Positions 23,031 to 54,848 of a stretch of 64,000 nt of DNA are shown one piece after another. The notes under the pieces are model-generated. The model saw only the letters and a list, made by a program, of their open reading frames with translations. It was not told the DNA's origin and searched no databases. How positions within the stretch are numbered: position 1 is the stretch's first letter; every line of letters begins with the position of its first letter. Position numbers and translations under genes: made by a program. Origin of the DNA: Obrimoposthia wandeli (lineage: Eukaryota); contig CDROCS010000376.1 of NCBI GenBank assembly GCA_977020255.1, forward strand, positions 372,001 to 436,000. Direction: 5' to 3'.

Positions 23031-23501
23031 TGTTTTCTGCCATTTGATAGGTTTTCCCTAAACGAAATGATCTGCAATCTGACATGTTTGTGCATCTTTG
23101 GGCAAAGTCAAGTTCCCAGTTGTCCCCAAATTAGACTTACCATGGATATGTTGGGGAAATCTAAAAGTGATGATGATTGATCACTTTGATCACCCCAAAA
23201 TCTGACAATCGAAAATGATACGTTGACTGAGGGATAAAAAGAATTGACCAACGACTACAACTTGTTGTCTTTGTAGAAGCCACAGTGGCAAAGAGTATAT
23301 CGTTACTACTTGCAATGAATGCTGTCATGAATTTTCATTATAGTTTATTTTATATATGTATAATTCTGCAGTTGGGTGCTATTTTACCACAAAAACTTTG
23401 TACGTTAATAATTAAATAGTGCAATTATAGATTACAGCACAAAAAAAACTTCAATATCAACCGATAGACATTGACTAAATGTGGATATGAATGTAAATTA
23501 T

Positions 23502-23595
23502 AGTAGGTGGATGTGTCCGGTCTAATCCACACCCCCTCCCCCTACTGTCCTTTAAAACCGTGCATGTGTGTGGAGTGAAATTTCGTGTAGGTGTG
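23502..23595 (+). repeat. Left terminal inverted repeat
   Basis: agtaggtggatgtgtccggtctaatccacaccccctccccc..gtcctttaaaaccgtgcatgtgtgtggagtgaaatttcgtgtaggtgtg. Its reverse complement is found at 40731-40807 and 54755-54848. Confidence 0.95.
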
Positions 23596-23879
23596 TAGAA
23601 AAATTTTCTACCCCCCCTCCCAAACACTCAAAAAAATAATTAACTCCATATAACACCCTGTAAATTTAAAAATCTCATAATGCTCCCAAAATTTTGATTA
23701 AGGTCCTGAGAGGCCAAAAAATTTTCCTTATAAAAATTTATATCCATACATATATACAAGGTCATAAAAAAAAATTTCTTTATAAGAATTTATAGGGTCG
23801 CAAAAATTTTTAAATAATCAACTACATAAATTCGAAATAATTTTCATTTTTATTTGATGAGTCATCAAATTAGTCATCA

Positions 23880-24075
23880 TGACCTCATGATGACCTAGAC
23901 AACTTTGTACCCTTGACCTCATGATGACCTTGACCTCATGATGACCTTGACCTCATGATGACCTCGAAAACTTTGTACCCTTGACCTAATGATGACCTTG
24001 ACCTCATAAGGTCATGACCTTAACTTGACCTCATGATGATGATGACCTCATAAGGTCATGACCTTAACTTGACCT
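23880..24075. repeat. Subterminal array of TGACCT/AGGTCA hexamers
   Basis: 16 TGACCT (23880, 23891, 23914, 23925, 23931, 23942, 23948, 23959, 23982, 23993, 23999, 24015, 24026, 24043, 24059, 24070) and 2 AGGTCA (24009, 24053), counted by eye. Confidence 0.9.
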
Positions 24076-24274
24076 GAAATGAGTTCATGAATTTTTTATA
24101 CCATCCAAACATGTACAGTCAAAAAATATTACTATTTTAAATCCAAAGACATACATGTATTCAAACATCAACAAAATTTAAGAAAATACCATAAATTCTT
24201 TGAATAATACGTTTTCATTGGACGTTAAACTTATACAACAAAATCTTAAGAAAATCTTAAGAAAATAGTTTTAT

Positions 24275-24564
24275 TTTCGAATAAAATATGTTTTATCCAA
24301 TGACATTCCAGCATTCAAACATAGTTAAAAAATTGAGAAAAGCCTACTGATTTTCAAATAAATTATTTGAATAACTCGCTCTCATTGGACGACAAAAGTT
24401 TAGTGATATACTTTCGAATAAAATATGTTTTATCCAATGACATTCCAACATTCAAACATAGTTAAAAAAATTGAGAAAAGCCTACTGATTTTCAAATAAA
24501 TTATTTGAATAACCCACTCTCATTGGACGATAAAAGAGGGTTAGTCTATTATTTTTGTATATAA
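24275..24564 (+). promoter_or_regulatory. 137-bp tandem duplication with CCAAT/ATTGG boxes and TATA upstream of gene A
   Basis: Units start at 24275 and 24412, with a third diverged unit upstream. CCAAT at 24297 and 24434, ATTGG at 24217, 24384 and 24522, TATATAA at 24558, ATG at 24621. Confidence 0.65.
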
Positions 24565-24620
24565 GGAAACCTCTTTTCAATATTTTTCATAAATCAAATA
24601 TCATCAATCAAGAAGCAAGA

Positions 24621-26732
24621 ATGTCAAATTTCAATAACGTCGATTTGGATGAAGAGACGGAGGTTCAGCTGTATGGGGATCTCTCTCCAGTACAGCAGCA
24701 AACGCCACCACCGGCGCAGTACATTGACTTACTTAGTCAAGACTCGTCGGTGGTGAGTGAAGGAGACGAAGGAGAAGCAGCAGCAAAAGCCCAACTGTTG
24801 CTAGAAGAAGAACCGCCATTGGCCAGCTCAACTCCAAGAGAACAACCAATGAGCGTGCGAGGTGGGGTACAGAGATCCCAATATATCGATCTGACTAGTC
24901 AGGATTCGATAGAGAATTGGGAAGACTGTACTCCCAGGCTGAACATAGAAGCCAATCGTCCGGCAACTTCAGCAGTAGCAGCAAGGAGATCCAATCTCTT
25001 CGACAATTTTGAGGCGGCAATCAAATGCCCCTGGAAATTGATCCCGCTGTCTCAACCGGAGATAATACTGGCACCAGACTCAGACGAGGAGTTGTTTACT
25101 GATGACGTTCCGTCGGATGGGGAGGAGGAGTGGATACAGCTAAGTATCGGAGCCCCGGGAGCCAACGAGTCCATGGTTGCAGAAATGGATGAAGAAGAGT
25201 GGGATCTGTTCACTGACGAATGGGATGGTCTCACTCCCTCTACAACTCCGACTCCGATACCCAACAATACAGTGCCTGATCCATTCAGAAGGCCACAATC
25301 TCCGATACGTCCTGTTAGGAGAATAAAGGCAACGAATGAGGTTAGAAATCATTTATTTAAAATGTTTTTTAATTTTATTTTCAGAAACTGCAACTTGATT
25401 TGGCACCGTCAGTGACCACGATTGAGAGGCTAATTGAACGTCAATACTTGGCGAGTCAATGTAGCCAGGATGATCCCAGGAGTGATCAGAGATACCTACC
25501 GACTCCGGCTAAAATTGAGGTATATTATTATAAATTAGTAAATTTATTTAATTATTCACTTAGGAAGCTGAGTTGGTGGAGGAAATTTGGGAGGAAGCAT
25601 CTCGGAGACTACCTGTCGATAGGAAGCAAGCGGCAGTTAAGAAACCTCGACGTCATCGAATCAAAACTAATACGGTCCATCGGAAGAAGGCCAAGTTGGT
25701 GAAACAGGCTAATCTGCCCGTCATCGAGGTAAATTATTTATATGTTTAAATTTTATGAATTTTTTTGTTGTTGCAGGGACCAATAATATTAACTGAGGAG
25801 ACATGGGCCAAAATTTCTCCTTTCCCGCAAAAGCGAACGAGGCAGTGTGCTGTACGGAAGACACGGCGTCTTAGAAAGGCAAAATCCTGTCTGCTCAATT
25901 CGAGTGAAGTAACGATTGAGCGGCAGGAAAATCTTCCGTATAAGATTATTGAGGTAATTTTTTGTTATTTTAAATATTTTTCTAATTAAATAAAATTTAT
26001 TTGAAAATTTATTTTTGTTTTCATTTGCAGGAACCTGTCCGGATAATTGAGGAGACTTGGGGAGAAGTTACTCCTTTCCCTAAGAAAAGGACAAAGCGGG
26101 CAGAGGTGAAGAAGACGAGGCGCGCGAGAAAAATTCGGACCTCAATTGGCCATTATTCTGAGGCGGTGATTGGCCAGCAGGAGATTCTCCCTCCTCCAAT
26201 GGACGACGGGCCTATCCTATATGAGAGGATCCCAGTCTCACCAATCGAGATAAGTCCGCACTCGAGTCAACAACGCCTGCAGGAGACTGCTTTTCCTCGT
26301 CCAACAACCAGCCAAAACTTGAAGAGGGCCTGGGATGACGCTGGTTTGGACGAATTCTTGGCGGAACTGGATACACCGGCAATGCTTCCAGATTCGCGTG
26401 GGCAACAGGATGCCGTCTCACGCCAGCTTCAGCGTGAGAAGGAGGAGAAACAGAAGAAAGCTCCGCGGAAGAGGAAGGCTACTGCTTCTATGTCGGGGCC
26501 ATCAACATCGGCTGCACCTCCTCCCAAAAAGTTGCGGCAACTATTGCCAAAACCCGAGGGAAGGACAATTGCTGTACAGCAACCGGTGAAGCCGAAAAAG
26601 AAACCGGGCCGACCAAAGAAGAAGGAACCAGTACCACTTTCTCCTATCAAAATAAGTCGGAGGGAATACGACCCGGATGATCCCAATGATGACTTCGTAA
26701 AAATGTTCAAAAATATAATTTATAAACATTAG
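24621..26732 (+). CDS. Polinton accessory gene A: ~632-aa, 5-exon low-complexity nuclear protein (SIM-like motifs, three exon-encoded repeats, NLS, AT-hook)
   Basis: Exons 24621-25340, 25385-25519, 25564-25728, 25777-25953 and 26031-26732, separated by AT-rich GT-AG phase-0 introns of 44, 44, 48 and 77 nt. Splicing joins three ORF-track fragments plus a frame-shifted exon (25564-25728) into one open frame. The 3' end could have one more intron near 26698. Confidence 0.8.
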
Positions 26733-27091
26733 TTTCTTGTGTTGTCTTTTTATTATTATTTATTTTAGAATTTAGTAATATTAAAATATACTACTTAAGT
26801 TTATTAAAATTACAAGATTAAAAGTAAAGTTTAGAATTTATTAATATTTAAATATCCTCCTTAAGTTTATTAAAATAACAAGATTAAAAATAAAGTTAAC
26901 TTATTCGAATGTGATTGGATTGTTAAGGAATAATTAAATTTTTTTAGGATTAAATATAAATGCAATGATTAGTTATATATTTATTAAACTTTCATTTGAT
27001 AAATATATTTTAATTACTTGTGATTGGATTAAAAATATCTTAAATTTATATATATAGGTTCAAATTTATTAACATCTTCATAATTAAAAAA

Positions 27092-27421
27092 ATGGAATTT
27101 ATTAAATTGCAAAGTTTGGTGACGAAGATCGAGACAAACATAAGAATAAATGAGAAGAAAGGAGACTTACGAAAGAGGATCCTCAACCAGAATTTATATA
27201 CTGCTGTCGCGACCGAGTGGAATCGTCGGGTGGAGATTCAGGACAGGCGGCTAGCAGAACGACGTCGGGTTGTGGAGTGGAACAAGAAAATCGAAATGGA
27301 AAAAAAGAAGGTGGAGGAAAAAAGAAGAGAAGAGACGGAGGATGTTCGGCGAGCAGAAAGAAAGCGAATCCTCCAGATTAAACCGGAAGAGGGTCCTTCC
27401 ACAAAAAAATTAATTTTATAG
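27092..27421 (+). CDS. Polinton accessory gene B: 109-aa charged coiled-coil protein with a SERTA/IER-like N-terminal motif
   Basis: Intact ORF with upstream GTGATTGGATT boxes (ATTGG at 26914 and 27023) and a TATATA. The LQSLVTKI..LRKRILNQNL resemblance is by eye only. Confidence 0.7.
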   Translation: MEFIKLQSLVTKIETNIRINEKKGDLRKRILNQNLYTAVATEWNRRVEIQDRRLAERRRVVEWNKKIEMEKKKVEEKRREETEDVRRAERKRILQIKPEEGPSTKKLIL

Positions 27422-27562
27422 ATTATTATTTTGTCTTTATTGATTATGTTATAAAATTGTCTAAATATTAAATTGTCTAAATACTACCTCGTCATTTTAA
27501 TAAATTTTTGATTAATAGTTTTTCGTTATAAACAACGGGATTTGCTACAAATTTGGGTAATT

Positions 27563-28051
27563 ATGCAGGAATATATCATAGATTTTGAGGCTTTCATTAA
27601 CAAAAATGGGGATTATATTATAAAAGAATTATGTATTATGGATGTATGCGACGTTTTTCATCCTTTGCATTTCATATTTCATATAGATATCCCATTTAAA
27701 AGTTTAGATTATAAGAAAAAATTTACTAATTTATATCTAACTAAATATTTCCATTTATTAAAATGGAAAGAAGGACATAAGGCTTTTTGTGAAATATGTA
27801 TTTTCGATACTATTAAATCTAATTTTGAAATTGAAAATGGAATTTTTTATGTTTTAGATGACATGGATGGCAAAAAATATAAGACTTTAAGAAAATATTT
27901 TCCTAAATTGAGGTTGAATACTTTAAATATTTCACGTGATCATCTATTAAAAATTCCACAAAATATTTCCTGTCCATATCGTAATCATGGTGACCATTGC
28001 GCATATAAAAAATGTTTAAGTCTTTCTTATTATTACTTGACATGTAGATAA
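27563..28051 (+). CDS. Polinton accessory gene C: DEDD/DnaQ-exonuclease-like protein with a C-terminal Cys/His cluster
   Basis: MQEYIIDFEAF..YIIKEL..HFIFH..LYLTKYFHLLKWKEG..CPYRNHGDHCAYKKC matches the D.E/Q.F..IKEL..H.L.W..G..C..H..CA pattern of a recurrent Maverick accessory family. Confidence 0.7.
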   Translation: MQEYIIDFEAFINKNGDYIIKELCIMDVCDVFHPLHFIFHIDIPFKSLDYKKKFTNLYLTKYFHLLKWKEGHKAFCEICIFDTIKSNFEIENGIFYVLDDMDGKKYKTLRKYFPKLRLNTLNISRDHLLKIPQNISCPYRNHGDHCAYKKCLSLSYYYLTCR

Positions 28052-28063
28052 ACAATTCTTCTA

Positions 28064-28405
28064 ATTGGAGGAATTCATTATTAAAATTTTACAATTATTT
28101 ACAAATAAGCCTTTTGATTGGAGGAATAAATTATTAAAATTTTACAATTATTTACAAATAAGCCTTTTGATTGGAGGAATAATTTTTTTTTCAACCTATA
28201 ATATATGAATAATCCTTCTCTTTAATTGGAGGAATAAAATTATTTTTTCAACTTATAATAGATAAACAATCCTTCTCTTTAATTGGAGGAATAAAATTAT
28301 TTTTTTCAACCAATAACAGATAAACAATCCTTCTCAGTGGAGGAATAAATTCAATTTTTTAATCCAATAGGAAAAGAACATGTGTGCATAAATTTTAGTA
28401 TATAA
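28064..28405 (+). promoter_or_regulatory. Tandem 53-57-bp repeats each carrying ATTGGAGGAA, plus TATA: putative pPolB promoter
   Basis: ATTGG at 28064, 28117, 28170, 28225 and 28282. CCAAT at 28310 and 28364. TATATAA at 28399, ATG at 28447. Confidence 0.65.
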
Positions 28406-28446
28406 GCAAACACTTTCTTCATTTAAATCCCCGACAATTTGAAATA

Positions 28447-31400
28447 ATGCCTATGGTAAGAATTTATTTTTCTTATTTCCTTATTAATATTTATTATTTC
28501 AGATTACGTGTAACCTATTCCCTGCGTATTGCGCTGCTTCGGCTCCGCATGGAGGAGAGTCCTGCATGGAGACAATGTCTGCATACTACCGGACAAAGTC
28601 TCAAGGTGTTCTGTTCTTCGTCTGCCCTTTCTGCAGAACAATGGAGGAGAAGGAGTTTCGAGAATTCTTCTGTGAACATCGAGCTCACCTATCGTGTTTC
28701 ACGGCCAACAACAAGAAGAGGGATATCGTCCAATTGGTGCGCGATTCGCAGGCCGCTCCAGCTCCACCTCCAATTCCAGTGGCAGTCAGTCTACCAGTTT
28801 ATGGTCCTGTCATTGGTCCTTCTCTCCCGGCTCCTGATTCTGCTGCTGCCCCATCCACTCAAATGTCTAACAATGAGTGGATGAACGACATCTCCGAGGA
28901 AGATTTTGAGGAGTTGGCACCAGCAACCCAATTCTCAAACAATGACTGGATGCGAAATATCACCCAGTCAGAATTCGAGATGGAGCAGCCTCAGTGGAGC
29001 GATAACTCATGGTTGGAGACCATCGATGAATCCAATTTCGTCGAGTCAACGGACGACAGCTGGATGGATTCCATCAATGAAGAGGACTTCATTCCAGCTC
29101 AACTTGGATTGTCATCATTAGGTATTTTTTTATTTTTTTTTGTAAATAGTAATTATATAATTTATTTTTTAATATATATATCTTATTTTTATTTTTTTAT
29201 TCAGGAAATACCGTTCTACAATCGTCATCTGCTACAACAGATATGCCTCCAATGTCGCGAGTGCCTACATTGATGTTAGGACGCCTTAGAGGTAATAATT
29301 TTTAAAAATATATTTATTTTTTAATATATTTATTTCAGCAGCACTAACCTCTAAAACAGCCGCTTCTTCATCGGCAAGGTCAGCGGTCCCTTCAACATCA
29401 GCTACAGTTGCCTCAACATCGGCAGCATCACCAATAGCAGCACCTTCAACCTCAGCTGAGTTTGTGTCAACTGCTAATATAAATAGTTGTCTTCCCGTTA
29501 AATTAGGGGGAGGTTTGTCAGCGACAAACGGAAGAAAGAGGCGAGGCCAATTTCTTAATAAGGTCCCACCCAAAAAACGTAGAGAAAACGGTGCTACTAT
29601 AGAGTATCACCTAAATAATAAATATGTTATAGTTAAGGTGCCATTAGGAAATGAAATTTTATTAAACGTAGGTGTAGATTCAAATATTGAAAATCTTTTA
29701 AAATCAGAAGTGACTAAATTAGGACAGGCTAAGGTTCAATTTTGCGCAACAGTGCAGTTTAAAAATGTCAATGAGGAAACTAAAACTTGGGTAATTTCAC
29801 ATAAAGCAACTGTTTTTTATGATAATTTTGTAACTGAAATTGGAAGAAACCTGGATGAAAAAATTGCTAATTATAGCGAGTTAAGTAGTGGATGGACTCT
29901 AGTTAGAATTCACGATGTTAGCTTTGTTCTAACAAAGTTCACTGACATGATATATCTTTCGGGGAGTTCATACATTCCTTCACCTAGATCTCTTCAACTT
30001 TCACGTTCCATTGTTAACGTACAAAACAGTGATAACCTTTGCTTTCTGTATAGCGTGTTGGCCATCCTCAAAAGGGATGTAATTACTGAGCATAGAGAGC
30101 GTGTCAGTAAATATACCCCTTTTTTAAATGAATTGCAGTATCATGGAATAGATTTTCCTGTTAAATTAACTGCGATATCAAGATTTGAACATCTTAATAA
30201 CTTGAGTATTAATGTATTCAAATATAATACTGATATCTCAGTTAATGTAACAGATGAAGAAAATTTTAAAAATCCTTTAGTAGATGTAATTTATAGGAGT
30301 AAAAATGAGGGGACTCAGGTCAACTTAATTTTTCTCGAACATAATAAAAAATTCCATTATGCTGCAATTCCCAATTTAGATCGTCTTCTAAATTTAGATA
30401 ATGGAGCCTTACCGGTTAGGATAAGGTGTAAGTGGTGTCATAGATGTTTGCATGGGTTCCGATCCGAGCTCTCTTACAGCAAACATCTGACATTATGTTC
30501 ACTGAATCCTGATGACAATACGCTATATAGCATGCCTAAGGATAAGGATTTAAAATTCAGGGATTGGGCAAAATGCATACCCGTGGAATTCAGGGTGTAT
30601 GCAGATTTTGAGTCAATTTTAGCATTGCACGACCAGTATGAGAGTATTCACCTACCGGCTTCGGCAGGACTACTATTCTTAGGCCCCAATATTACCCAGT
30701 ATCATAAATTTTCCGGTCCAAATTGTATTTTAGATTTTATGTTAAAATTAGAGGAATTAGGAACAACAATTGTCAAACCGTGGTATGATCTCAATGCTCA
30801 TCAAGCAATGATCATGACAGGCATAGACTGGGTTAATTTTAATTCTTGTAGATTATGTAATTTGTGTGGAACCCAGTCTAAGTTAGTCAGAGATTACGAT
30901 CATGTTATGGGGCGATACTTGGGAGCGGCGTGCAACCTTTGTAACCTTGGCCGTTGTCTCCCTAAAAAACCACGCATTCCCATCGTGTTTCATAACCTCA
31001 AAGGATATGATTTGCATCATATACTTAAATACGCGTTGGGTACATTAAGCTCTTGGGAAATTTCATGTATGCCTCAAACTTCAGAGAAATATTTATCTTT
31101 AACTGCATATACTGAATTCTGCAGTTTAAGATTCATAGATTCTCTGCAGTTTTTGAGCGGGTCTTTAAAAAATTTAACGGCATCTTTAAATGCATGGCCA
31201 ATTACACAGTCAGTGTTCCCAACTTCGGTTAACGATAAGGGGATTTTTCCGTATCAATTTGCGAAAATTTTCGCAGATTTAGAAAATACAACTGAAATCC
31301 CACCCATAACTGAATTTGAGGGTGTAAGTCTTCAAGACTATAATGAGGCCCGTACATTTTGGGTGAATAATTGTCGAAATCGTTTAGAATATATGCTTTA

Positions 31401-32888
31401 TTATATGAAGTTAGACATTTATCTTTTAGCTTATGTTTTTGAGTCCTTTCGTGTAAAGTCTTTAGCAGAAGATGGGCTAGATCCCATGCATTTCTTTAGT
31501 TTACCTGGTCTTTCATGGGCAACAGCAATAAAAACTCTTAAAATTAATATTGAGTTACTGCAAGATCCCGCGATGTATCAAATGTATGATTATGGTATAC
31601 GCGGTGGAATGACTTTTGTCAACAATCATCATGTTGTCAAAAGTCAATCCACGGAGATTCTGAACATCGACATTAATAATTTGTATGGGTGGGCGCTTAC
31701 TCAACTTCTTCCTCATGCCAACTTTAAGTGGGTTTATGATGAGGAAGAGTTGAATAAGTTGATGACAGATTTGGCTACTGTTGATACAGTTTCATCAGAT
31801 ATCGGCTATTTGGTTGAGGTTGACTTAACAATCCTTCCAATGTGCATGATAAATTAGATGATCTTCCAGTAGCGCCTGTTCATCAATACCCACCTAATTC
31901 AAAGGTTAAGAAATTATTGTTAACCCATGAAGACAAGTTGAATTATGTTGTGCATTGGCGGCTTCTTCAATTCTACTTAAAGTTGGGAGCGAAAGTTACT
32001 CGAATTCATCGTGCTAAAAGCTTCAGTCAAAACTTTGTGTTTAAAGACTATATTGAGAAGAATTCAAGAAAACGTAATTTGGCCACTAGCAAATTCGATC
32101 GAGATTTTTATAAGTTAAAAAGTAATAGTCTCTTTGGAAAAACTGTAGAGGACTTGCGGAAACGTATTTGTCTACGGTTTTGCAATGATGAGCGTAAACT
32201 AAAAACATATACTAGCAAGTACAACTTTAAGCGTAGTTTTACAATTGCAGATGACTTGGTAGCAGTGTTATTAGGAAAACAGAGTATTTGTCTCGATCGA
32301 CCGAGTTATATAGGTCAAACGGTTTTAGACATTTCTAAACTCAGAATGTATGAGCTTCAATACATAGAATTGGAGAAATACCGACAAGAATTTAATTGTG
32401 AGATTAAAATCGCAGCTGGGGACACTGACTCTTTCTTTTTAGAATGTAGGAATGTTAGTTTAAATAATCAATTATTACCAGCAATGTTTAGGGACAAATT
32501 ACTAGATACCCATAAATATCCCGCTAACCATCCTCTACACTCTATGAGTTTAAAGGACATTATCGGGAAATTTAAGGATGAAAGCGAGGGACAGGTTTCG
32601 TATGATGATTGTATTTTCCTACGCCCTAAATGCTACAGTTTACATGCATCTAATAATACATGGTCAATGAGAGCAAAGGGTGTGGGAAGAAACAATCTTA
32701 CACATGAGGCCTACCGGAAAGTTTATGATACTGGGTGTATTGAAAGCGTTGAGCAAACTAGATTTATTTCAAGAGCCCATCAACTGTATTCCCATAAATC
32801 AACCAAAATCGCTTTGAGTAGTAATGACGACAAGCGCTTTTGGGTAGAAAAGAACGCTAGCCTGGCTTATGGACACTTCAGAATTTAA
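28447..32888 (+). CDS. polB: Protein-primed DNA polymerase B with spliced N-terminal extension; one -1 frameshift near 31836
   Basis: Exonuclease motifs YADFES, FHNLKGYD, YMKLDIY. Polymerase motifs DINNLYG, KLKSNSLFGK, AGDTDS, LRPKCY, KG. Predicted exons 28447-28455, 28503-29121, 29205-29291, 29339-32888. The join of ORFs 29464-31857 and 31842-32888 is repaired by one extra C in atcc[c]ttcc (LTIPSNVHDKLDDLP). Confidence 0.95.
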
Positions 32889-33161
32889 ACGGTTTTCATT
32901 TTTTGATTTTTTAGTTTAGTTTTTTTAAATTTTAGATCCTTATGGCACTTAGACTCTAACTTATTTGTTATTTCAATACTTTTTAGGATGGACCTTATTT
33001 ATTATGCCTTATCTTTGCTGACATATCTCATTGTGATGTTGTGATTAATAAATGTATTAAAAAAAATTGTCTTATGTCTTTTATTATTTTACCCTTATAT
33101 TTTTAGAGATTTAAAAAATAATTCAAAATAAAACATTTAAAATTTTTATTTTTATAACACA

Positions 33162-33543
33162 CTAATCGTTTTGCAACGATAACCATAAAATACATAAATG
33201 TCCACAGTTTCTCGTCGCAGGATCCTGATATTGTATCTTGTTGTAAAATACTCTTCTTCGTCCTTTTTGAATAGTTGAAACAAGTTTGTGTGGATAATAC
33301 ATTGCAAGTGGATCAAATACATGTATTGTTCACTCTCTAACATAAATAGCTATCCAATGTTCTCCTGGTAAATTCGAAGTATGAGTATTGATAATGTAAC
33401 CTCCAGATTGAAAAAAATGGAATCATATCAATAGGATAAACTCCATTGAATTTATCACCCAGGACCTTCTCTGCTGATTCTTTTACTTGTTTTGAACTTA
33501 ATAAAAATTAATAAATATAAATTTAAAATATGTCTTACTCCAT
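33162..33543 (-). pseudogene. Adenain-type maturation cysteine protease (PRO), spliced, disrupted
   Basis: Not in the ORF track. ATG-GA micro-exon (33543-33539), 42-nt GT-AG intron (33538-33497), then MDSKQVKESAEKVLGDKFNGVYPID..GGYIINTHTSNLPGEHWIAIYVRE*TIHVFDPL..QYQDPATRNCGHLCILWL. Catalytic H, D, Q and C are present. One extra T in a T7 run (33411-33417) and an in-frame TGA (33330-33332). Confidence 0.9.
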
Positions 33544-33544
33544 T

Positions 33545-34776
33545 CTATAATATGACAGTTCTGTTTTTATTGATTTGTATTTCCGAATCAAATACTCCGT
33601 AAATAAGCACCGTAGTAGGATTTGTTAAAGCTGCATTGAACTTAATTTCTAGTCGTAAATTTCCATCCTTTGGTAGTTGGCATTGGTTTATATCAAAGTC
33701 TGGTGCCAAAACAAATGTGAAGAACGGGCAGCTGTTTTTAAATTCAGTGAAAGAAATACCATTGTTTATATTTTTATCTAGTTGACCCAAATTCCGAATA
33801 ATAGATTGGGTATAAGCCAAAGCATAAGCGTTACCTTCGAAATCTGTTTTATATGTTTCACGATAATCAGTATTTCTTGAAAGTGTCACTGAACCAACAT
33901 TGAAGATTGTCAAATTGAGTTGCATCTGTCGTATAATTTCCTAGAAACTTTGCAGTTTTTTGGAAAGAAATTAAAATGAATTTCGGTAATCTTACACCAC
34001 CAAAAATTTGATCCTTATTAAAAGCTTGTGTACCCGTACCTAAAAAATAAGATATAAGTTTAGTTTCTCTAATAGGATAACAAGCATTGTTTTTTTCCAT
34101 TCCTATATTATGTGCCATTAAAACTGATTGCTCGGTTTTAACTCTTCGAACATACAATTTTGCATCCAAAATATCAAGTCTAGGTTTTAGAATGTCCGTG
34201 CTTGTCAAAGAAAAATTCCATTTATTACGTTTCAAACGAAGATGTACATTAACACCGGGAATTAAATATTTCGGTTGTTCAAAGAAATTCAATCTCAAAG
34301 ACCCACACATTTCGTAAGCTTTAGAACCTGCAATCCATTCTTTGCGAGTTGCATCAGTTTTATCATAACCAATGGTTGCCAAATTAGTATTTTGAGTATC
34401 AGTACTATAATTCAAAAGACTTTCAATCAAAGCTTTATGAGCATAGGAAGAAATTTCCACCTTCAATTTTGACATTATTAAGAGTAACAATGGCATCATT
34501 AAATAAAGAATTAAATAGATAATTTACAGGTGTTACATCGGCATTTTCATCTAAATTAGTACCATCCCGATTTAATACTTTTATTTGAACATAAAGCAAA
34601 GTATCATTCAAATCTAAATACTCGCTATTGGAACCATTAATATTAAATTCTAAATCGGTTAAAATGGTTCCTTAAACTGAGTTAACTAGGAATATTTCTT
34701 CAAAGGAAGCATTATCTACAACTACTTGTGGAAGCGGTTTATCAAAAATACATAAATCAGTTTTGGCGCAACTCAT
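33545..34776 (-). pseudogene. Major capsid protein (double jelly-roll, hexon-like), disrupted
   Basis: MSCAKTDLCIFDKPLPQ..LEFNINGSNSEYLDLNDT..VTPVNYLFNSLF..YAHKALIESLLNY..FFEQPKYLIPGV..LAPD..GNLRLEIKF..VLIYGVFDSEIQINKNRTV is the typical Polinton MCP. One TAA (~34672) and frameshifts near 34455 and 33905. Confidence 0.9.
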
Positions 34777-35085
34777 TTTGCAAATATTGTTCCTTCAACT
34801 TTCTTACGTTTGTTTATATTAAGTTTTAGCTTCTTTTACTTTTAAATCCACTACCTCCTTGGCTTTTATTTGATTTACGTTTTCTAATCAAATTAGCAAC
34901 TTCAGGTAAAACATTATCAAGTTCATCAATTTTGATATAAATCGCCCGAGTCTCTTTAAAAGAGGAAAGGCAAATCTACCTAATGTTCTAAGCCAGCCAG
35001 ATCCGTATTGTTTACCAACAAAATATGGTAATTCTCCACCTTGTTGGCTTTGACTATAAGCTTCAATTATTGCTGGATTCGCCAT
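34775..35085 (-). pseudogene. Small Gly-rich amphipathic virion (core/membrane-lytic-like) protein, frameshifted
   Basis: YSQSQQGGELPYFVGKQYGSGWLRTLGRFAFPLLKRLG matches the conserved Polinton Y..Q.GG..F.G...G.G..L..L.R.A.P.LK peptide. The basic C-terminus KRKKVEGTIFAK* is in another frame. Confidence 0.7.
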
Positions 35086-36103
35086 TTTGTTTTCTTAAAT
35101 GTATTGTTAAACTTGTCTTGGCCCCGTACGTGAAATCTATTAGTTGTCCGGAATCATCTCTAATATTTACTTCAATATTGTTTATAGAAAAGAGAGAAAC
35201 TGGAAGATACATTGGTTGATCTATACACATACCGACAGTGTCTCCATCTCTAGTTTCATTTTTAGATATCCATATTGTTCTCAAAAGTGGAACTCGCTGT
35301 CCTCCTACAAGCGTTGGTTCTATTAAATTAGTATAAATATATAAATTATTAACAGCATTTAAATGTTTTGCCTTATTTTTAGCTTTTATGGTTTTTATTG
35401 TATGGATTTCAAAGGTATTTCTGTTTAAACCAAGGTTTTTAGCGAGTTTATCATCAAATGAAACTCGTTTTATATTGCTCTTTACTGTAAACGTTAATTT
35501 ACCATTTAATGTTTCACATTTATCCAAATATTCACTACATTCCTTCTGTATTAATTTACAGAAATTCACTTCACTATCTATTTTATAATCTTTTGAAAAC
35601 GTTTTCAGTTCCACTACAGTCTTTGGTCTCGTTTCAAGTAACAACACTTTTGCTACTCTACCAGGAACATTTCTAACTGAATTAGATGAGATAATATCCC
35701 GTTTATTACGAGCTACTGTTTGTTCACTATCAAAACTGAATTGAAGAGCTTCTTTTTTAGATTCAAAATTAATTTTAATAACTTGAAGAAATTTTAATCG
35801 ATTTTTAAATCTGACTTTGTTATTTTCAAATATTACTTTCACTTCTTTATCTATACAATTGTAATAGAATTGTCCTTTACTATCAAACCCGATAACAACT
35901 TCAGTTGTTTTTTCATGATCAACTTCTTTTGTAAACGAAATATGTGAGTTTTTTTGATAGTAATTGGAGAATAATAAAAAGAAAATTCTGTTAAAGCCGC
36001 TTCCCATAGAATTTTCCCAATCGATAATAAAGCTACTAGCGTCATTATCTGGTTGAGTCTTCGGACATCCGTTACTTGGTAAAACCATATACATAGAATT
36101 CAT
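35063..36103 (-). CDS. Minor capsid protein (penton-like)
   Basis: N-terminal YMVLPSN..P.N..SF and C-terminal LYIYTNLIEP..VG..VPLLR..MYLPV..IEVNIRDDSG..F..G..LTIHL. The conserved WEAALTEFSF lies in another frame, indicating a compensated double frameshift. Confidence 0.85.
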   Translation of the reverse strand: MNSMYMVLPSNGCPKTQPDNDASSFIIDWENSMGSGFNRIFFLLFSNYYQKNSHISFTKEVDHEKTTEVVIGFDSKGQFYYNCIDKEVKVIFENNKVRFKNRLKFLQVIKINFESKKEALQFSFDSEQTVARNKRDIISSNSVRNVPGRVAKVLLLETRPKTVVELKTFSKDYKIDSEVNFCKLIQKECSEYLDKCETLNGKLTFTVKSNIKRVSFDDKLAKNLGLNRNTFEIHTIKTIKAKNKAKHLNAVNNLYIYTNLIEPTLVGGQRVPLLRTIWISKNETRDGDTVGMCIDQPMYLPVSLFSINNIEVNIRDDSGQLIDFTYGAKTSLTIHLRKQNGESSNN

Positions 36104-37128
36104 ATTATATTAGATGCTGATATCCAAGTTGGGTCTGAATAACCATGCCATTTAACAAAGTATTGTTTATGTTTACCTGTACCCTTAGATTTTAATATTT
36201 TTTGAATACGGTAAACGCTAGGTTTATTTGATATTACTTGTAGTTCTTGCTCGTAAAATTTACCGTGAACGATATTATTGTCAGCATCTTTAATAGTATA
36301 CATTATTGGATTACTCTTTTGATCAATTTTACTTATACAAAATATTTCATCGCTCCAATTCTGATCAAAGTTTTTAATAAATGGAGTAGAGCTAATTTTC
36401 GAAATTCGAACATATTCGTTTTTCTTATATTTAGATTTTTTAATTTTAGATTTTTTATTCCTGTTCATCCAAATGTCCATAGAGTTTTTATTAGTAACAT
36501 CAACAGGTCTCATTCCCTTGAGACCTCTATGTTCAGAGTGATTATATGCATGTATTATTTTAGGTAAAACTTGGATCCATTTTTTATTTCCTTCTTTTGT
36601 GAAATACTTTTTTATTCGATCTCTTAGAGTACGATTAAATCTTTCTACTACTGCTGCTTTGTATTGGGAAAACACAGAGTAATGATTTATATTATTTTGT
36701 TTAAATAATGATTGAACTTGCTTATTATAAAATTCTTTTCCTAAATCAGTTTGCACATTTTGTGGAATGTCCTCTTTTAATATTTCTTTAATGGCTTCAA
36801 GCATAGCTATTGAAGACTTTGCTTTAACTGGAATTGCACGAGCAAACCTGCTAAATACATCAATACATGTTAAAATATATCGATATCCCTTATTAATGGA
36901 AGAATATGGGATCATCTCCATCAAATCCATTTGCCATAAATTATTAGGACCGCTGGTTTTGTAAGCTCTAGTTGGAAACCTTCTTCTCATCGGCTTGTTC
37001 AGGCTGTAGGCTAACTGGTCGCTCAGCCATTTCTGCGTTTTCTTGTAATTTTGTTTTGTTCTTTTTGCTAATTTTGAAACTCCTGTGTAGCCAATTGGAT
37101 CTTTTGGATTGAACCATATCTTCTCCAT
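36100..37128 (-). CDS. int: RVE-family integrase with C-terminal chromodomain, intact (342 aa)
   Basis: WQMDL, QTDLGKEF and AAVVERFNRTL (D-D-E). C-terminal YRIQKILKSK..QYFVKWHGY..TWI chromodomain. ATG at 37128 (MEKIWF) is supported by the homologue at 5530. Confidence 0.95.
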   Translation of the reverse strand: MEKIWFNPKDPIGYTGVSKLAKRTKQNYKKTQKWLSDQLAYSLNKPMRRRFPTRAYKTSGPNNLWQMDLMEMIPYSSINKGYRYILTCIDVFSRFARAIPVKAKSSIAMLEAIKEILKEDIPQNVQTDLGKEFYNKQVQSLFKQNNINHYSVFSQYKAAVVERFNRTLRDRIKKYFTKEGNKKWIQVLPKIIHAYNHSEHRGLKGMRPVDVTNKNSMDIWMNRNKKSKIKKSKYKKNEYVRISKISSTPFIKNFDQNWSDEIFCISKIDQKSNPIMYTIKDADNNIVHGKFYEQELQVISNKPSVYRIQKILKSKGTGKHKQYFVKWHGYSDPTWISASNII

Positions 37129-37214
37129 TACAACAATTTGAATAGAAAGAAAATTTAAGTTTAGGTAAAGAAGGGCTAGCACCCATATCTTTAGCTGGTT
37201 TTAGAAATAATTGT

Positions 37215-37544
37215 TTATGAACGTGTCGCAGCTATAATACTACTGATAATTGAAGCAACAACTGGAATAACAGCCCCTATGAAACCACCATTATGTTTAA
37301 GAATAATATTTCGTTTTCTTTTTTTACTTTTTACATTAGCAATATCTTGAAGAGGTTTTCTATATTTCTTTAATATATTTTTCCGATTTCCAACTTTAAC
37401 TCGACCCAAAACTATATTATACAAAACTTCCAATAAATCATCTACAACAAAGGATGGAAATGCTTTAAGAATAATCATTCTCTTATTAGAAGAGGCTTTG
37501 ACTAAAGCTTTAAAATAGGGTATGCTTCTTTGTATTTTCTTCAT
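37215..37544 (-). CDS. Small basic conserved Polinton protein with GG-F motif and hydrophobic C-terminus (putative virion core/cement)
   Basis: LLEVLYNIVLG..LKKYRKPL..KRKRNIILKHNGGFIGAVIPVVASII matches the recurrent Polinton E..N.L.G..L..YK..L..KR..L.Q.GGF family. Confidence 0.75.
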   Translation of the reverse strand: MKKIQRSIPYFKALVKASSNKRMIILKAFPSFVVDDLLEVLYNIVLGRVKVGNRKNILKKYRKPLQDIANVKSKKRKRNIILKHNGGFIGAVIPVVASIISSIIAATRS

Positions 37545-37723
37545 TTTAATAAAAAAGGTTTAATTTAAATATTGTTTATATTCGAAGCCATTTAAGTTTT
37601 TTTTTATTTTTAACTACAGATTTGATTAATTTTTTAACTTCTTTTTTCTTAATGATTCTTTTTTTTGATTTCTTAGATTTTACTTTACGTTTTACTATCA
37701 ACTTTGTAAAAGGCATTGCGAAT

Positions 37724-38370
37724 TTATTTTTTATAATTGTTCTCTATTTGTTTATAAACAGTTACTCCCTTAGATTTAAATATGTCTGTTAAAACACGTA
37801 AATCATCTGGGCAAGCTTCTGTAAAGTCAATAAATATATACCCATGTGCTTGTTTAGCAGCATCGTGGAATGAATCAACTAGAAAGTTCTTATTTTGAGG
37901 AAATGCCTGTCTGGCCACAAAATCAACAACTGTTTGATCTCTAGGATTTTTAAATAAAACTAAGTAATGTACATTAAGATTTCTTGTTCTATGATGACCT
38001 CCTGGTGAAACAGATTTTGAGTGATAAATATAACTGTTACTTCACGATGTCTTGCAATCTTTGTAAATAAATTATTAAAGTCCGATTCCTTGTTAGCCTC
38101 CTCATACAAATCATCAATTATTATTACATCTTCTTTTTTCAATCTTTCACACCAATTTGCATCAAATCCTTCAATAAATTTTATACCCTTCAACTTGCAA
38201 ACTTCTGTTTTGGTTAACCCGCTTTCCCCTCCTCCACCATGATGCCAATAAATATTTTTGAAACTAGATTTGAAAAGAGATTCATTTTGCAACAATTTAC
38301 AGACGAAATTTGTCTTTCCACTTCCACTTGGGCCAACTATTTGAAATACAGCATTATTATTTAGCTCCAT
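37724..38370 (-). CDS. FtsK/A32-like genome packaging ATPase; one frameshift near 37997
   Basis: GPSGSGKT (Walker A), IIIDDL (Walker B), ARH..IFITQNLF. Continues in another frame as GGHHRTRNLNVHYLVLFKNPRD..HGYIFIDF..LRVLTDIF. Confidence 0.92.
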
Positions 38371-38407
38371 TGCATATACTCTTTCATTTTTAATATTGTT
38401 TATATTA

Positions 38408-38680
38408 TCATAGAAGTTTCCTTATTGAAATGTACAATGTTAGAGCTATTGTAGATGAAATACAAAAATTAATTAATGAATATTTGACTATAATTTTATT
38501 TATTTGTGTACGAATTCTAAATTCTCGAATAACGTGTGATCTAACCAATATTTCAATGTTATCTCTTGTTATATCATTATTTTTTAATTCTGATAAAATT
38601 TCTTTACCCCTTATTTTTCCAGAAAATATTTCATCGGCAAGCCGATCCACTTCATTGTCTCTATTTATAGTATTATTCAT
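38408..38680 (-). CDS. Hypothetical 90-aa protein with C-terminal hydrophobic segment
   Basis: Intact ORF between the ATPase and TBP-like genes in the same orientation. Ends YSLINFCISSTIALTLYISIRKLL. Confidence 0.5.
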   Translation of the reverse strand: MNNTINRDNEVDRLADEIFSGKIRGKEILSELKNNDITRDNIEILVRSHVIREFRIRTQINKIIVKYSLINFCISSTIALTLYISIRKLL

Positions 38681-38708
38681 TCAAAACAATAAGTTTAAAC
38701 GGGTTTGT

Positions 38709-39208
38709 TTATAGAAAAGATAACAAGATGTAATAAGATATATTTTCTAAAATCAAATCAACAATGTCTGGATAATAAAAATTTTTCAATCCCAATATCA
38801 TAACTTTACCACTGGAAAATATATTTACACATAGCGGTTTAAACTTCAAATAACTGAGAGCAGGAAATATTTCTGGTTCAAACATGCATTCTTCTTTCAT
38901 TTTCTCTGCAGTTTTAAAAAGATTTATCTGTTTTCCGAGATTAGCCGAAATCGTGATTGATTGTATTGCAGTGATTTGAATTCCAAATGGTAAATTGAAC
39001 CCAAGCATTGGTATTTTGCATCCCATAACACGACAATTTCCTAAAGAATTCAATATGAAAATAAAATAAAAAACTAACCTGTAGGAAAAATAACAACTGT
39101 GAAATTGTCAAACCTTTCTACATATTGTCTCGGCTTCCATTCATTGAATGGTAAGTACGAAACATCATCTTCTGTTCTACCTTTATAATTTATATTTACG
39201 AGTTTCAT
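38709..39208 (-). CDS. TATA-binding-protein (TBP)-like protein, 153 aa, 2 exons
   Basis: Exons 39208-39079 and 39040-38709, 38-nt GT-AG phase-1 intron. Repeat 1: MKLVNINYKG..TVVIFPTGNCRVMGCK. Repeat 2: IQSITISANLGKQINL..FEPEIFPAL..PLCVNIFSSGKVMILGLK. Compare TBP QNIV..LIFxSGKxVxTGAK and YEPELFPGL..LIFVSGKVVLTGAK. Confidence 0.85.
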
Positions 39209-39487
39209 TAGACTAAAATTGTATTCTGTAAAATCTTCTTTATATATGTCTGAACCTGCTATTTTATTGCACGTTTCTTGTAATTATCTTGCAAACCTAT
39301 TATAATTGGATGATATATTTCTTCCAATCAATTTTGATTTTTAATATAGATTTAGTCCAATCAAATTCAATGCTTTAGTTATATTAACCAATGAGATTCA
39401 TGTCTTTGTTAGAAATTAGTATAAAAGAATGCGCCATTGGAGGACAAATCACAGTAAATGCATTCATATCAAAGACAATTATCAACG
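39209..39487. promoter_or_regulatory. Divergent promoter between the TBP-like gene and paralogue pair
   Basis: CCAAT at 39324, 39357 and 39388 (33/31-bp spacing), ATTGG at 39305 and 39436. TATA on - at 39239-39246 and TATAAAAG on + at 39420. Conserved in the inverted copy at 57090-57320. Confidence 0.65.
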
Positions 39488-39934
39488 ATGGACGATAGCC
39501 AACGGGTATTAAGCGATGACGAAGAAATGTTTGAAGAATCGGATAAGGATATGTATGAAGAAGTGAAACAATATTTCAAATACAAAGTCAGATTCTTGAA
39601 GAAGGCTCAACTGATTGCTTTAGTAAATCCTGTGACAATTGAAAGAAGAAAGTTCAGCTACTATATATCAGGTATTCAAAAACCTGATTTTCAAAATCTT
39701 AAACAGAAAATAGAAAAGGCAGTTCCAAATTTTACTTTCAATAAGAACGAATTTTATATCTGAGGAGCCGATGAAGCATTTCTAGATGACTATGGAAGAT
39801 ATGTTGATATTGATGCGTTTCCGAAAAAGAAGCAATGGACTCTAACAATTCGACTTTATGGTTACAAGAAAGATGAAATGGGGACAAAGTTGCCTATGTG
39901 GAAAATTGAACGTGCTCATATTTCTATGTTTTAA
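39488..39934 (+). pseudogene. Accessory gene D1 (paralogue of 40068-40472); one in-frame TGA at 39761
   Basis: The frame continues past the TGA: GADEAFLDDYG..WTLTIRLYGY..PMWKIERAHISMF*. Aligns along its length with the next ORF. Confidence 0.75.
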
Positions 39935-40067
39935 CTTTTGTGTGTAATAAATTGTAATCGGTTTTACTATGTTTCTTTCATTTAATAATCAGTTTTATTT
40001 GTATCTTATTTGTATCTTATGTGTATTTTTTATAAACATTGTTTTTAATCAGTTTCCTTATTTTAGA

Positions 40068-40472
40068 ATGGATAAGAGATGTGTAGCAAATTTTTATTAT
40101 CCAGAAAGAATTTCAAAAAGAAAACTATGTAATATATTAAAGAGGCATCAAATTATACGAATTATGAATCCTGTGAAAATATCAAAAGTGGAGAAAGAAT
40201 ATCTCATCGAAATTTTAACAACAACTGATTTTGATCAACTGAAAAATATTTTGGGATTTTACATTCCTGATTATGTATATGAAGGAAATTGTTTCGAGCT
40301 TGAAACTGATCCCAGTCTGGATTTTAAAGATGATCTAGGATATTTGATTGCCCCAATTCTAGATGAAGAACTATGGAATATCTCAATACGTCTCAATGGA
40401 TATTTTGCTGATGACGGGAAAATGCAGCCTCTCTGGACTTTGAGTGAAGCCAATATGTTGTTTTATGTTTAA
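40068..40472 (+). CDS. Accessory gene D2 (paralogue of 39488-39934), function unknown
   Basis: MDKRCVANF..ILKRHQIIRIMNPVKI..DFDQLKNIL..FKDDLG..WNISIRLNGY..PLWTLSEA. The ATG is preceded by ttttag, so an upstream exon is possible. Confidence 0.75.
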   Translation: MDKRCVANFYYPERISKRKLCNILKRHQIIRIMNPVKISKVEKEYLIEILTTTDFDQLKNILGFYIPDYVYEGNCFELETDPSLDFKDDLGYLIAPILDEELWNISIRLNGYFADDGKMQPLWTLSEANMLFYV

Positions 40473-40730
40473 TAAATATTTTGAAAAATAATTTTGTCTC
40501 GTATTTTGTTTTTGCTCCTCTAAATTATATAGATCTGACCGATTTCTCTCCTCTAAATTATAAAACTGACCTAGATATTTAACATGTAGTAATTTATTAA
40601 TCTAAAATCCGGGGTCAATATGGATTCTCGTGGTCTTCTCTAACCACTTTTGAGATTCATGGTAAAAGTTTAACAAATATGGTGGGGGGTTACCCCTTCC
40701 TTCCCCCTTTGGGTGGAATGGAGACATACA

Positions 40731-40807
40731 TACACGAAATTTCACTCCACACACCTACACGGTTTTAAAGGACAGGGGGGGGAGGGGGGTTGTGGATTAG
40801 ACCGGAT
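40731..40807 (-). repeat. Right terminal inverted repeat (13 nt missing just inside the terminus)
   Basis: tacacgaaatttcactccacacac..ggttttaaaggacag..gtggattagaccgga-t. Lacks cacatccacctac relative to the left TIR. Confidence 0.9.
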
Positions 40808-41779
40808 GATTATGAATATATTAAACATCAACAAATGTATTATTTAAATATCTATGAACATTTTTAAAGTACATGCTCATGTATTTATGATTTTAGTGAA
40901 AGTTTATTAGATCGCATTAGATTCCAGTGCATCTAAATGCTGAATATTATTCTTTTATTTAATTCTTAATAATTGCTGTTAATTTTGCAACATTTATTAA
41001 AAAGAAACCACCATGTGTTTGTTATGGTAGAAATTTGGCCCAAATTATTGATTAATTTTCAACATAAAAATTGTAGAATTTATAATTATATATACATTTG
41101 AAGGAAAATAGAGAAAAATCCGAAATCAAAGAAGTTACTTTTCAGAGATAAATTTACGTTTAATATTCGTTTCTTTTCAAATTTAAATCGTAATTCCAAA
41201 CCAATGAATATTTTTTCTATTTTCTTAGTTTATTTATCGATTTTTTCGATATTAATATTTTTATTTGTTCTTACCTCAGAAAACTAAAAAATTAGAAATA
41301 AAAAAAAATATATATATATTGATTAAATTTATTTATACAGTAGGTCCGAAAATTCTGACAAATATAAAGAGAAAGAAAATTTTAAAAATTATTTTCTGCG
41401 ATTAATCAATACTTGAATTTTAAAATTCCACATTTAATGAAGCTCCATTGGCAGCCGATCATTACCAGAATTGAATTCAAGATCCTACTTATTATCAAAA
41501 AGAAGTATTCTCCCACTAAATCCCAAATATTTATATGATCTTCTCGACTCTAGAAAATAACTGCAGATTGGCCTATAAATTCTCAAATAACAAACAGAGT
41601 GATGAAAGATTTGAAATCGATACTCAGAATCTTTACAAAAATTTACCGATGAATGCTTTATTATTCAGATATTAATATGAAGAATTATTGAAAATCGTAA
41701 GCACCTTTGAGTAATAAATCATAGCTTTGTAAGATATTAGCGCTGCATTAAATATATCATTGTTATTGTTTGAAATGTA

Positions 41780-52775: not shown

Positions 52776-53222
52776 ATGTAGACGTGCAAGCTACACTGTT
52801 GTCTGCAATGATTTCAGATGGATTAATAGACATCAAAATTTTCTATAAACCATCCTTTAGCCAATACTGCGATAGGCAAGTTTAAGGATGAGAGTAAGCA
52901 ATGTAGATATAAGCAATGGGTATTTTTACGCTCCAAATCATATAGCTTAGAAACTATAGACGGAAAGTCCCAGATGAGAGCAAAGGGAATTAGCCTTAAG
53001 CAGACTGTGCTACGCCATGCGAATTATTTAGCTGCATATGATAGTGGGGTTAGTGAACGAGTGCAACAACAACGCATTAGTTCAATTAATCACCAGCTCT
53101 ATACCGTAAATATGAGTAAGATCGCATTGAGTAGCAATGACGATGAGAGAAAATGGGTAGAGAAAAACCGGTCAGTTGTCTACGGACATCATAGATATCC
53201 AGATGATTTTTCACTTGAATAA
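52776..53222 (+). pseudogene. pPolB C-terminal remnant
   Basis: AIGKFKDES..WVFLRSKSYSL..MRAKGI..QRISSINHQLYT..KIALSSNDDERKW..YGH is colinear with the end of the pPolB at 32888. Confidence 0.9.
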
Positions 53223-54690: not shown

Positions 54691-54848
54691 GGGGGGTACC
54701 CCCCCCCCTTGTCCTTTAAAACCGTGCATGTGTGTGGAGTGAAATTTCACTCCACACACCTACACGAAATTTTACTCCACACACATGCACGGTTTTAAAG
54801 GACAAGGGGGGAGGGGGGTGTGGATTAGACCGGACACATCCACCTACT
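54691..54848 (-). repeat. Third copy of the Polinton TIR with an internal fold-back duplication
   Basis: 54755-54848 is the reverse complement of the left TIR including its terminus. 54703-54747 and 54767-54811 are 45-bp inverted arms with one mismatch. Confidence 0.92.

Follow-up and report, generated by a model that had tools for sequence, protein, structure and literature searches.

A remodelled TBP and its upstream box as the likely late-gene switch of an animal Polinton

The element and its genes

A 64,000-nucleotide (nt) stretch of Obrimoposthia wandeli DNA (GenBank assembly GCA_977020255.1, contig CDROCS010000376.1, positions 372,001-436,000), here called the window, carries a 17.3-kb Polinton at 23502-40808. 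Comparison of this element with its relatives brings out, at the level of sequence, two classes of promoter, a conserved upstream box, an element-encoded protein with the fold of TBP, altered residues on the DNA-facing side of that fold, and the co-occurrence of this TBP with the box. The remodelled TBP is probably a late-gene switch, encoded by the element itself and acting via the box, YATAAACR.

An earlier note on this DNA had placed a Polinton at 23496-40813, and that identification stands. pPolB (PF03175, E 2e-15) and an RVE integrase (PF00665, E 3e-13) are present, as are the A32 ATPase, the protease, the major capsid protein (MCP) and the penton, the last two recognised through similarity and gene order only. 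The arms of the terminal inverted repeat (TIR), at 23532-23596 and 40724-40788, are 91% complementary. Because the right terminus is incomplete, the target site duplication (TSD) of the window copy is not checkable; a 6-bp TSD flanks nine of the ten sister copies with both ends (the two-ended ones among 20 two-stretch copies retrieved). The integrase query finds at least 118 scored copies of 98-99% identity in the source genome (G000), and the TBP and 109-aa open reading frame (ORF) queries give at least 150 matches each, all these counts being lower bounds. The element is a high-copy animal Polinton. The window copy itself is broken: the frames of pPolB (near 31850), protease, MCP, PW-position ORF and ATPase are interrupted and SSB1, a single-stranded-DNA-binding (SSB) protein, has an internal stop. 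In sister copies the frames of MCP, ATPase and SSB1 are open. The features of the element, with the position of the YATAAACA box where there is one, are as follows.

23502-23599: left terminus and TIR, starting AGTAG at 23502
24621-26732, plus strand: SIM gene, encoding a disordered acidic/basic protein with two IDL[LT] SIM-type motifs and one PGRP AT-hook-type motif; CCAAT+TATA promoter; predicted exons 24621-25340, 25385-25519, 25564-25728, 25777-25953 and 26031-26732
27092-27421, plus: 109-aa ORF, helical and charged ('SERTA-like'); CCAAT+TATA promoter
27527-27534, plus: YATAAACA box of the MAEL-like ORF, at -36, kept in 33 of 34 copies
27563-28051, plus: MAEL-like ORF with a putative degenerate DEDD-type fold; invariant E, H, C, H, C
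28447-32888, plus: pPolB, four predicted exons (introns 28456-28502, 29122-29204 and 29292-29338); CCAAT+TATA promoter
28503-28751, plus: N-terminal Cys/His module of pPolB, joined to it through predicted splicing
33162-33543, minus: adenain-type protease, candidate intron past the first codons; broken
33545-34776, minus: MCP, broken (409 aa in sister copies); box at -42
34776-35085, minus: PW-position ORF (125 aa in sister copies); box at -101, within the penton gene
35063-36103, minus: minor capsid protein (penton); box at -68, within the integrase gene
36100-37128, minus: RVE integrase with chromodomain, intact
36968-37186, minus: 72-aa ORF with MG start, overlapping the integrase start; box at -33; homologue in locus L074
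37215-37544, minus: PZ-position ORF with pX-like tail (Adeno_PX, E 0.014); box at -36
37576-37716, minus: Lys-rich peptide in the PM position; box at -40, within the ATPase gene
37724-38370, minus: A32 packaging ATPase, broken (215 aa in sister copies); box at -34
38408-38680, minus: 90-aa ORF with hydrophobic tail; box at -33; homologue in L065
38709-39208, minus: compact, remodelled TBP; predicted exons 39079-39208 and 38709-39040, intron 39041-39078
39209-39457: bidirectional TBP/SSB1 promoter region with five CCAAT/ATTGG and a canonical TATA on each strand
39458-39934, plus: SSB1, T7 gp2.5-like oligonucleotide-binding (OB) fold; internal stop (158 aa in sister copies)
40068-40472, plus: SSB2, a paralogue of SSB1 (26%); box at -37
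40724-40808: right TIR, the terminus lacking its last ~14 nt

The virion and integration core lies at 33162-38370 on the minus strand, where the earlier note had put it, with matches to integrase (rve E 3e-13, chromo E 3e-5) and A32 ATPase (E 5e-7). Protease, MCP and penton are assigned through similarity to relatives; the protease of one of these, L059, matches Peptidase_C5 at E 1e-5. MCP and penton have no Pfam matches, the identity of MCP coming from its position and its similarity to Polinton loci. The 72-aa ORF may possibly be myristoylated, judging from its MG start. pPolB, RVE integrase with chromodomain, A32 ATPase, protease, MCP, penton, TIRs and 6-bp TSD are common to Polintons, Mavericks and adintoviruses, and vertebrate Mavericks have the same order, atp-pm-pz-int-mcp-pw-MCP-pro facing pPolB, in the partial text of PMC8097293. 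What sets the present element apart from these is its nine predicted introns and its remodelled TBP with a matching box, the latter pair not described in the literature searched.

A class of remodelled TBPs

The TBP-like gene of the earlier note is confirmed (PF00352, E 5e-12). The AlphaFold model of its homologue P0010, to which both window exons align, has the two-repeat saddle of the TBP superfamily (pLDDT 91; 145 aligned residues, Z 12.6, root-mean-square deviation 2.5), with no helix following the N-lobe sheet. A metagenome scan with the TBP gave 74 loci, among which 35 also match the ATPase, 19 the integrase, 18 the SSB and 9 the MCP, and the TBP profile gathers 56 clusters at E<=1e-30.

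These TBPs fall into two classes. Class I consists of five canonical-like proteins. Class II comprises 39 non-redundant TBPs and is a single clade (support 100/99 in a midpoint-rooted tree from which three truncated class I rows were omitted). Class II shares with cellular TBP (PF00352) and with giant-virus TBP-like proteins the two-repeat saddle, the E-P-E stirrup that contacts TFIIB and three of the four intercalating Phe; E-P-E and these three Phe are kept in 39 of 39. Relative to cellular TBP it lacks the N-lobe stirrup and the first Phe (lost in 39/39) and has N, R, M, S and T at DNA-facing sites: V>N in 37, V>R in 39, T>M in 39, N>S in 36 and V>T in 37. Of the four intercalating Phe and the N/V/T DNA contacts of a canonical TBP, three Phe are thus retained, and the first Phe, V, V, T, N and V are altered in 36-39 of the 39. 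A compact subgroup also lacks the second N-lobe helix, its linker being 12-21 aa compared with 27-30 in cellular TBP. The near-invariance of the changed residues suggests new contacts rather than decay.

As a separate observation, the 3' end of the TBP gene (window 38709-38720) varies in length among copies, some of which run on into the 90-aa ORF.

Two promoter classes and the YATAAACA box

The SIM gene, the 109-aa ORF, pPolB, TBP and SSB1 all have CCAAT and canonical TATA elements (5/5) and none has the box (0/5). The earlier note had reported such promoters for the first four, and these are indeed found, with 2-5 CCAAT/ATTGG per 250 nt against 0.97 expected and TATA at -38 to -63; the TBP and SSB1 promoters are one intergenic region, where tandem repeats supply some of the CCAAT copies. 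The second class is marked by YATAAACA, a box that the earlier note had not noticed and that stands at -33 to -101 before 10 of the 11 virion, packaging and neighbouring genes of the window. These genes have at most one CCAAT, and a canonical TATA is found at 1/11. Each of the ten window boxes reads YATAAACA in 15-33 copies, with two misses at most.

Among relatives the box is present on the sense strand of 70 of 106 non-redundant windows and on the antisense strand of none, the shuffle expectation being 2.2. Positions C7 and R8 are fixed. Where the box overlaps coding sequence it is translated as YKQ/HKQ or as SIN/NIN, and elsewhere it lies in non-coding DNA; all 20 ATPases ending in YK do so with TAT AAA C, and seven further loci lack YKQ. 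This variety of reading frames indicates that the constraint is on the DNA.

A possible explanation for such a motif is that YATAAA serves the upstream gene as a variant polyadenylation signal and is no promoter at all. TATAAA and CATAAA are variants of AATAAA, and in many cases the box is indeed close to where an upstream ORF of the same direction ends. However, several boxes precede the upstream stop codon by 40-100 nt, a place at which cleavage would truncate the ORF, and in L075 the ATPase with a box at -36 is arranged head-to-head with TBP, no upstream gene being detected on that strand. A polyadenylation signal also leaves the fixed C7 and R8 to be accounted for, and we regard this as the least probable of the alternatives, with scarcely any weight.

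The box goes with the class of TBP. It precedes 68 of 82 genes in class II loci and 0/7 in class I loci, where no motif stood out upstream of the late genes in the seven windows available. The relatives' own TBP genes have the box in 0/39 cases and a canonical TATA in 21/39. In control loci with canonical-type TBP (L109, L113, L114, L164) or none detected (L165, L167-L169), a pool that takes in the class I loci, the box was found before 1 of 31 genes, and in the TBP-less L170 before one of seven; L166, L171 and L172, without a full core, were left unscored. Two loci provide a separate check on the co-occurrence, since they were retrieved by ATPase or integrase rather than by TBP: L163, found via its ATPase, has a class II TBP and boxes, and L164 has a canonical-type TBP and no box before its seven core genes. 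In IMG/VR, searches with the TBP, two MCP queries, a single integrase and the ATPase found no relative, and an integrase alignment gave three loci, one of them a Polinton.

It could be argued that the box answers to a helper DNA virus, whose late promoter it would be in the manner of virophages and some Polinton-like viruses, the TBP serving another purpose. Helper-matched promoters are known for mavirus, and giant viruses do have TBP-like proteins. Against this, the box-class protease gene has a candidate spliceosomal intron, the early genes have host-type promoters, and the box tracks the element's own TBP class across ATPases that are only 30-78% alike. This explanation is very unlikely.

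A late-gene switch

In the mechanism that we favour, host factors would transcribe the early genes (SIM protein, 109-aa ORF, pPolB, SSB1 and TBP) and the transcripts would be spliced; pPolB and the SSBs would copy the genome. The TBP, made early from its host-type CCAAT+TATA promoter, would then bind YATAAACR upstream of the genes for capsid and packaging, where it would recruit TFIIB and Pol II from the host. Its intact C-lobe would take the 5' half of the box and the grip on TFIIB, and its altered N-lobe would read the C at position 7, which host TATA boxes avoid: the host consensus is YWTAWADN, with C at 7 excluded and a Phe pair inserting at 7/8, according to excerpts of PMC1935006. We put at slightly better than even the fuller proposal of a one-protein late switch, in which a TBP of switched specificity recognises YATAAACR and brings in TFIIB and Pol II independently of TFIID, in a widespread clade that would have the smallest viral pre-initiation system, reached separately from that of the herpesviruses.

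A different arrangement is conceivable, in which the box is recognised by a protein of the host, be it a forkhead protein, a paralogue of TBP or TBP itself at a weak variant of TATA, and the TBP of the element serves as a decoy, binding TFIIB or TATA DNA and so damping host or early transcription. ATAAACA fits the forkhead consensus, RYAAAYA; class II TBP retains the TFIIB stirrup and loses DNA-facing residues, as a decoy might, and TFIIB genes are present in the host. On the other side are the strict orientation (70 against 0) and position of the box, the occurrence of GTAAACA in just 2/82 class II windows with G after C in 16/80 sites, the rarity of the box in Polintons without class II TBP, and the near-invariance of the changed residues already described. 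A host reader with a decoy TBP is thus unlikely, if less so than the other alternatives.

The closest precedent for an element-encoded switch is found in the beta- and gamma-herpesviruses, whose early TBP-like protein (BcRF1/ORF24/UL87) serves minimal late promoters with a non-canonical TATA and uses host Pol II, BcRF1 acting at the TATT boxes of late genes (partial text of PMC4893493). The Polinton likewise has a non-canonical box before late genes and none before its TBP gene. Its TBP differs in being ~150 aa, free-standing and possessed of the TFIIB stirrup, and its box departs from TATA at position 7 (and 1) rather than 4. Pfam suggests no homologues of the other five proteins of the viral pre-initiation complex, no profile search having been aimed at them. 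By analogy, the late switch is likely to work like BcRF1 at TATT without being that system, and the element's TBP presumably arose separately. The earlier note had proposed an early/late programme in which an element-encoded factor acts on Pol II initiation; the promoter sequences and the TBP favour the programme, and its adenovirus analogy gives way to the herpesvirus one.

Several points count against the switch. The protease is an exception, its box being at -227; two genes with the box, SSB2 and the MAEL-like ORF, are not virion genes; the MG-start and zinc-finger ORFs of relatives have it in 0/13 cases; and 14/82 class II windows are without it. A single box follows the ATPase in L170 and in L168, both TBP-less, L170 has TATAAACT before the ATPase, and the control contigs L165 and L167-L169 are partial, so that a TBP may lie outside them. 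As all class II proteins belong to one clade, the association of TBP and box amounts to a single evolutionary contrast, a dependence that the Fisher p computed for the window and controls leaves out of account. The first-Phe column of the alignment is gapped, making its register unsure, and the N-lobe's facing the 3' half of the box is a placement that we assume. Too few shared variants were available in the right-half genes, TBP included, for an estimate of selection. Lastly, BcRF1 makes no distinction in vitro between TATA and TATT, and it depends on five partners (PMC4893493, partial text).

In the literature searched neither this TBP class nor the box is described, though figures, slide supplements, GenBank files, Repbase and subscription papers may annotate a TBP. 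The terms TBP and TATA are absent from 10.1101/2023.08.22.554363, PMC11131425, 10.64898/2026.10.13.758929, PMC11071296 and 10.64898/2026.06.19.733378, and TATA from the partial text of PMC8097293; in excerpts of PMC8502044 the legend to a figure does mention 'TBP', for MELD viruses and elements related to them.

Predicted introns

Eight GT-AG introns of 38-83 nt are predicted, four in the SIM gene, three in pPolB and one in TBP, with exon frames open throughout, and the protease gene has a ninth candidate. The earlier note had called three of the five named accessory genes spliced, and three of them do have predicted introns. The seven on the plus strand are 44-83 nt and 83-94% AT; that in TBP is 38 nt. 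Predicted donors are retained in 25-32 of 26-34 copies and acceptors in nearly all (22/28 at worst), with 17/17 for TBP. The TBP intron is the best supported, both exons being covered without it by 14 homologues of 144-181 aa, and an intron of ~40 nt is found at the identical TBP site in L074, L140, L142 and L146. GT-AG ends, frames open across exons and absence from homologues are thus as expected of spliceosomal introns. An indel test was not clean (exon classes four in frame and seven off, intron classes two in frame and 11 off), the classes of +/-1-2 nt mixing unrelated sites.

In some copies TBP has an open frame of 233 aa. A frameshift in place of the intron was considered and rejected, because that frame continues into the next ORF and intronless homologues span both exons.

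Predicted introns at one site in several families would mean a long-standing use of host splicing. Intact vertebrate Mavericks are reported to be intronless (PMC8097293, partial text), and the introners known from Polinton-like elements of dinoflagellates were for the most part inserted later (PMC11957031, partial text).

Left-end and right-end accessory genes

The earlier note had assigned five accessory genes, placed at the two ends of the element, to a dedicated transcription/chromatin-regulatory module, weighed here as a single module of E1A type. In its favour, the left-end ORFs are under selection, keep their order and 41-68% identity in another family, and include SIM-type, AT-hook-type and acidic motifs. 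For selection, 40 copies and the window were compared, shared variants being those seen in three copies or more. The ratio of non-synonymous to synonymous change (omega) for these is 0.22-0.39 for the SIM gene, 0.10-0.26 for the 109-aa ORF, 0.23 for the Cys/His module, 0.10-0.21 for the pPolB core and 0.36 for the MAEL-like ORF (Fisher p 0.45, binomial p 0.018). Private variants, whose counts are biased by the picking of copies by similarity, give higher values (0.56-1.13), and the synonymous excess disappears in shifted frames. The left-end ORFs are under purifying selection, and the neutral evolution that would have told against them was not seen (omega 0.10-0.39).

The individual labels fare unevenly. 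For the SIM/AT-hook protein, the IDL[LT] motifs are kept in 21/28 and 22/27 copies and the PGRP motif in 24/32; a relative in L142 is 41-44% identical. The SERTA label finds no support, the 109-aa ORF having no Pfam match at E<=1 and PF06031 no match to it at E<=10 in the genome. RING-H2, defined by eight ligands C-C-C-H-H-C-C-C in RING spacing, does not fit the Cys/His module: the last CxxC pair is absent, C57 is S or G in 13/31 copies, and Pfam gives E 0.13-0.22. With C57 variable and that pair missing, the module is best read as a putative double zinc module; nine C/H sites are kept, another family has a 30% homologue, and the aligned positions differ in L140. Atlas rows for the module (<=0.81) and SSB1 (<=0.86) were leads only.

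The DEDD-like ORF does not qualify as an active DEDDh exonuclease, which has four acidic residues and a His: in 13 sequences the first D-x-E is mostly kept and no later invariant Asp is found. It is better read, tentatively, as MAEL-like. Like the Maelstrom (MAEL) domain, of DnaQ-H fold, it has an invariant E, H, C, H, C and has lost the later DEDD acids. It differs in that the genome's best PF13017 (Maelstrom) match, on a sister-family ORF, is below cut-off (E 0.38), and this 160-aa protein, known from sequence, has itself no Pfam, PDB or phage match. It was matched in 10 of the 74 metagenome loci, downstream of the protease in eight.

At the right end the two right-most ORFs are SSB-like rather than regulatory, SSB1 by modelling and SSB2 as its paralogue. 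The predicted fold of SSB1 (pLDDT 87) resembles T7 gp2.5 (Z 7.7), and the top four rows are T7 gp2.5, Enc34 and African swine fever virus CP312R, which have the OB fold in common, and a phage DUF2815 protein (Z 6.3-7.7). Z values below 8 are middling, and the element differs from such SSBs in having two paralogues under different promoter classes.

One module is therefore highly improbable: besides the failed labels, the MAEL-like ORF has a late-type box and follows the protease in most relatives, the GRP core is missing in the degraded relatives L142 and L144, LxCxE occurs in none of the left-end ORFs, and those other than the MAEL-like ORF were matched in 0/74 metagenome loci, most contigs being short. 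The left-end ORFs are presumably real, selected, lineage-specific host-interaction proteins of unproven role. The gene set is partly familiar, since MAEL, SSDBP and IAP labels stand on published adintovirus maps (supplement text) and motif-only 'Oncoid' genes upstream of PolB are described in excerpts of PMC8502044; the remodelled TBP and box are what the literature searched does not describe.

Other observations on the left end and pPolB may be noted. A degraded third family (L142:147-3323, minus strand) has the same left-end order of SIM, 109-aa, MAEL-like and Cys/His, at 41-68% identity. The pPolB linker (window 28890-29100) has four to five acidic Trp repeats (xxW-x-x-x-I-x-E), whose number differs in frame between subfamilies. 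The stretch from the left TIR to the first gene contains TGACCT-rich tandem repeats of 17 nt (23878-24067), which include two AGGTCATGACCT palindromes and resemble nuclear-receptor half-sites.

Related families and surroundings

L140 (G000:C749, oriented 8499-9395 and 16259-18589) is a second Polinton family with class II TBP and boxes; it also has a BIR/IAP-like ORF, and its pPolB Cys/His module is preceded by a ubiquitin-like stretch that ends in LRGG. In L109, L113, L114 and L164 the TBP is full-length and of canonical type, the box is missing and the core genes follow one another stop-to-start, possibly a different late strategy. L164, L165, L167 and L169 (genome_contigs) are Polinton contigs within prokaryotic bins of metagenome-assembled genomes, probably eukaryotic contamination.

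Extra cargo, labelled by eye, includes ORFs resembling an E2 ubiquitin-conjugating enzyme (L065:225-719), KilA-N (L085:7136-7993) and RING (L074:1710-2168), and a signal-peptide leucine-rich-repeat-like ORF (L068:1918-3327). Fragments of other Polinton copies or families lie in the window at 4458-9061, 52754-53222 and 54699-57877 (ATPase, integrase, pPolB, SSB, SIM), with a further terminus at ~54848. Host sequences near insertions, also labelled by eye, are a discoidin-domain-like exon (window 62333-62932) and Nup98-like FG/GLEBS and DEAH helicase genes (L015:4947-9317; L150:3598-5880).

Implications

If the switch operates as proposed, class II TBP would prefer YATAAACR over TATAAAAG, and a preference for C7 would be expected among TATAAACA, CATAAACA, TATAAAAG and their C7 variants. 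Virions or an infection cycle have not been observed for animal Polintons, according to partial literature sources. A late box with a cognate TBP makes the timing of capsid expression testable and offers a sequence marker for late genes in unannotated elements. These Polintons would have an autonomous nuclear early/late cycle and an orthogonal TBP-promoter pair, and a natural TBP with a changed reading of position 7 would bear on the evolution of TATA recognition.

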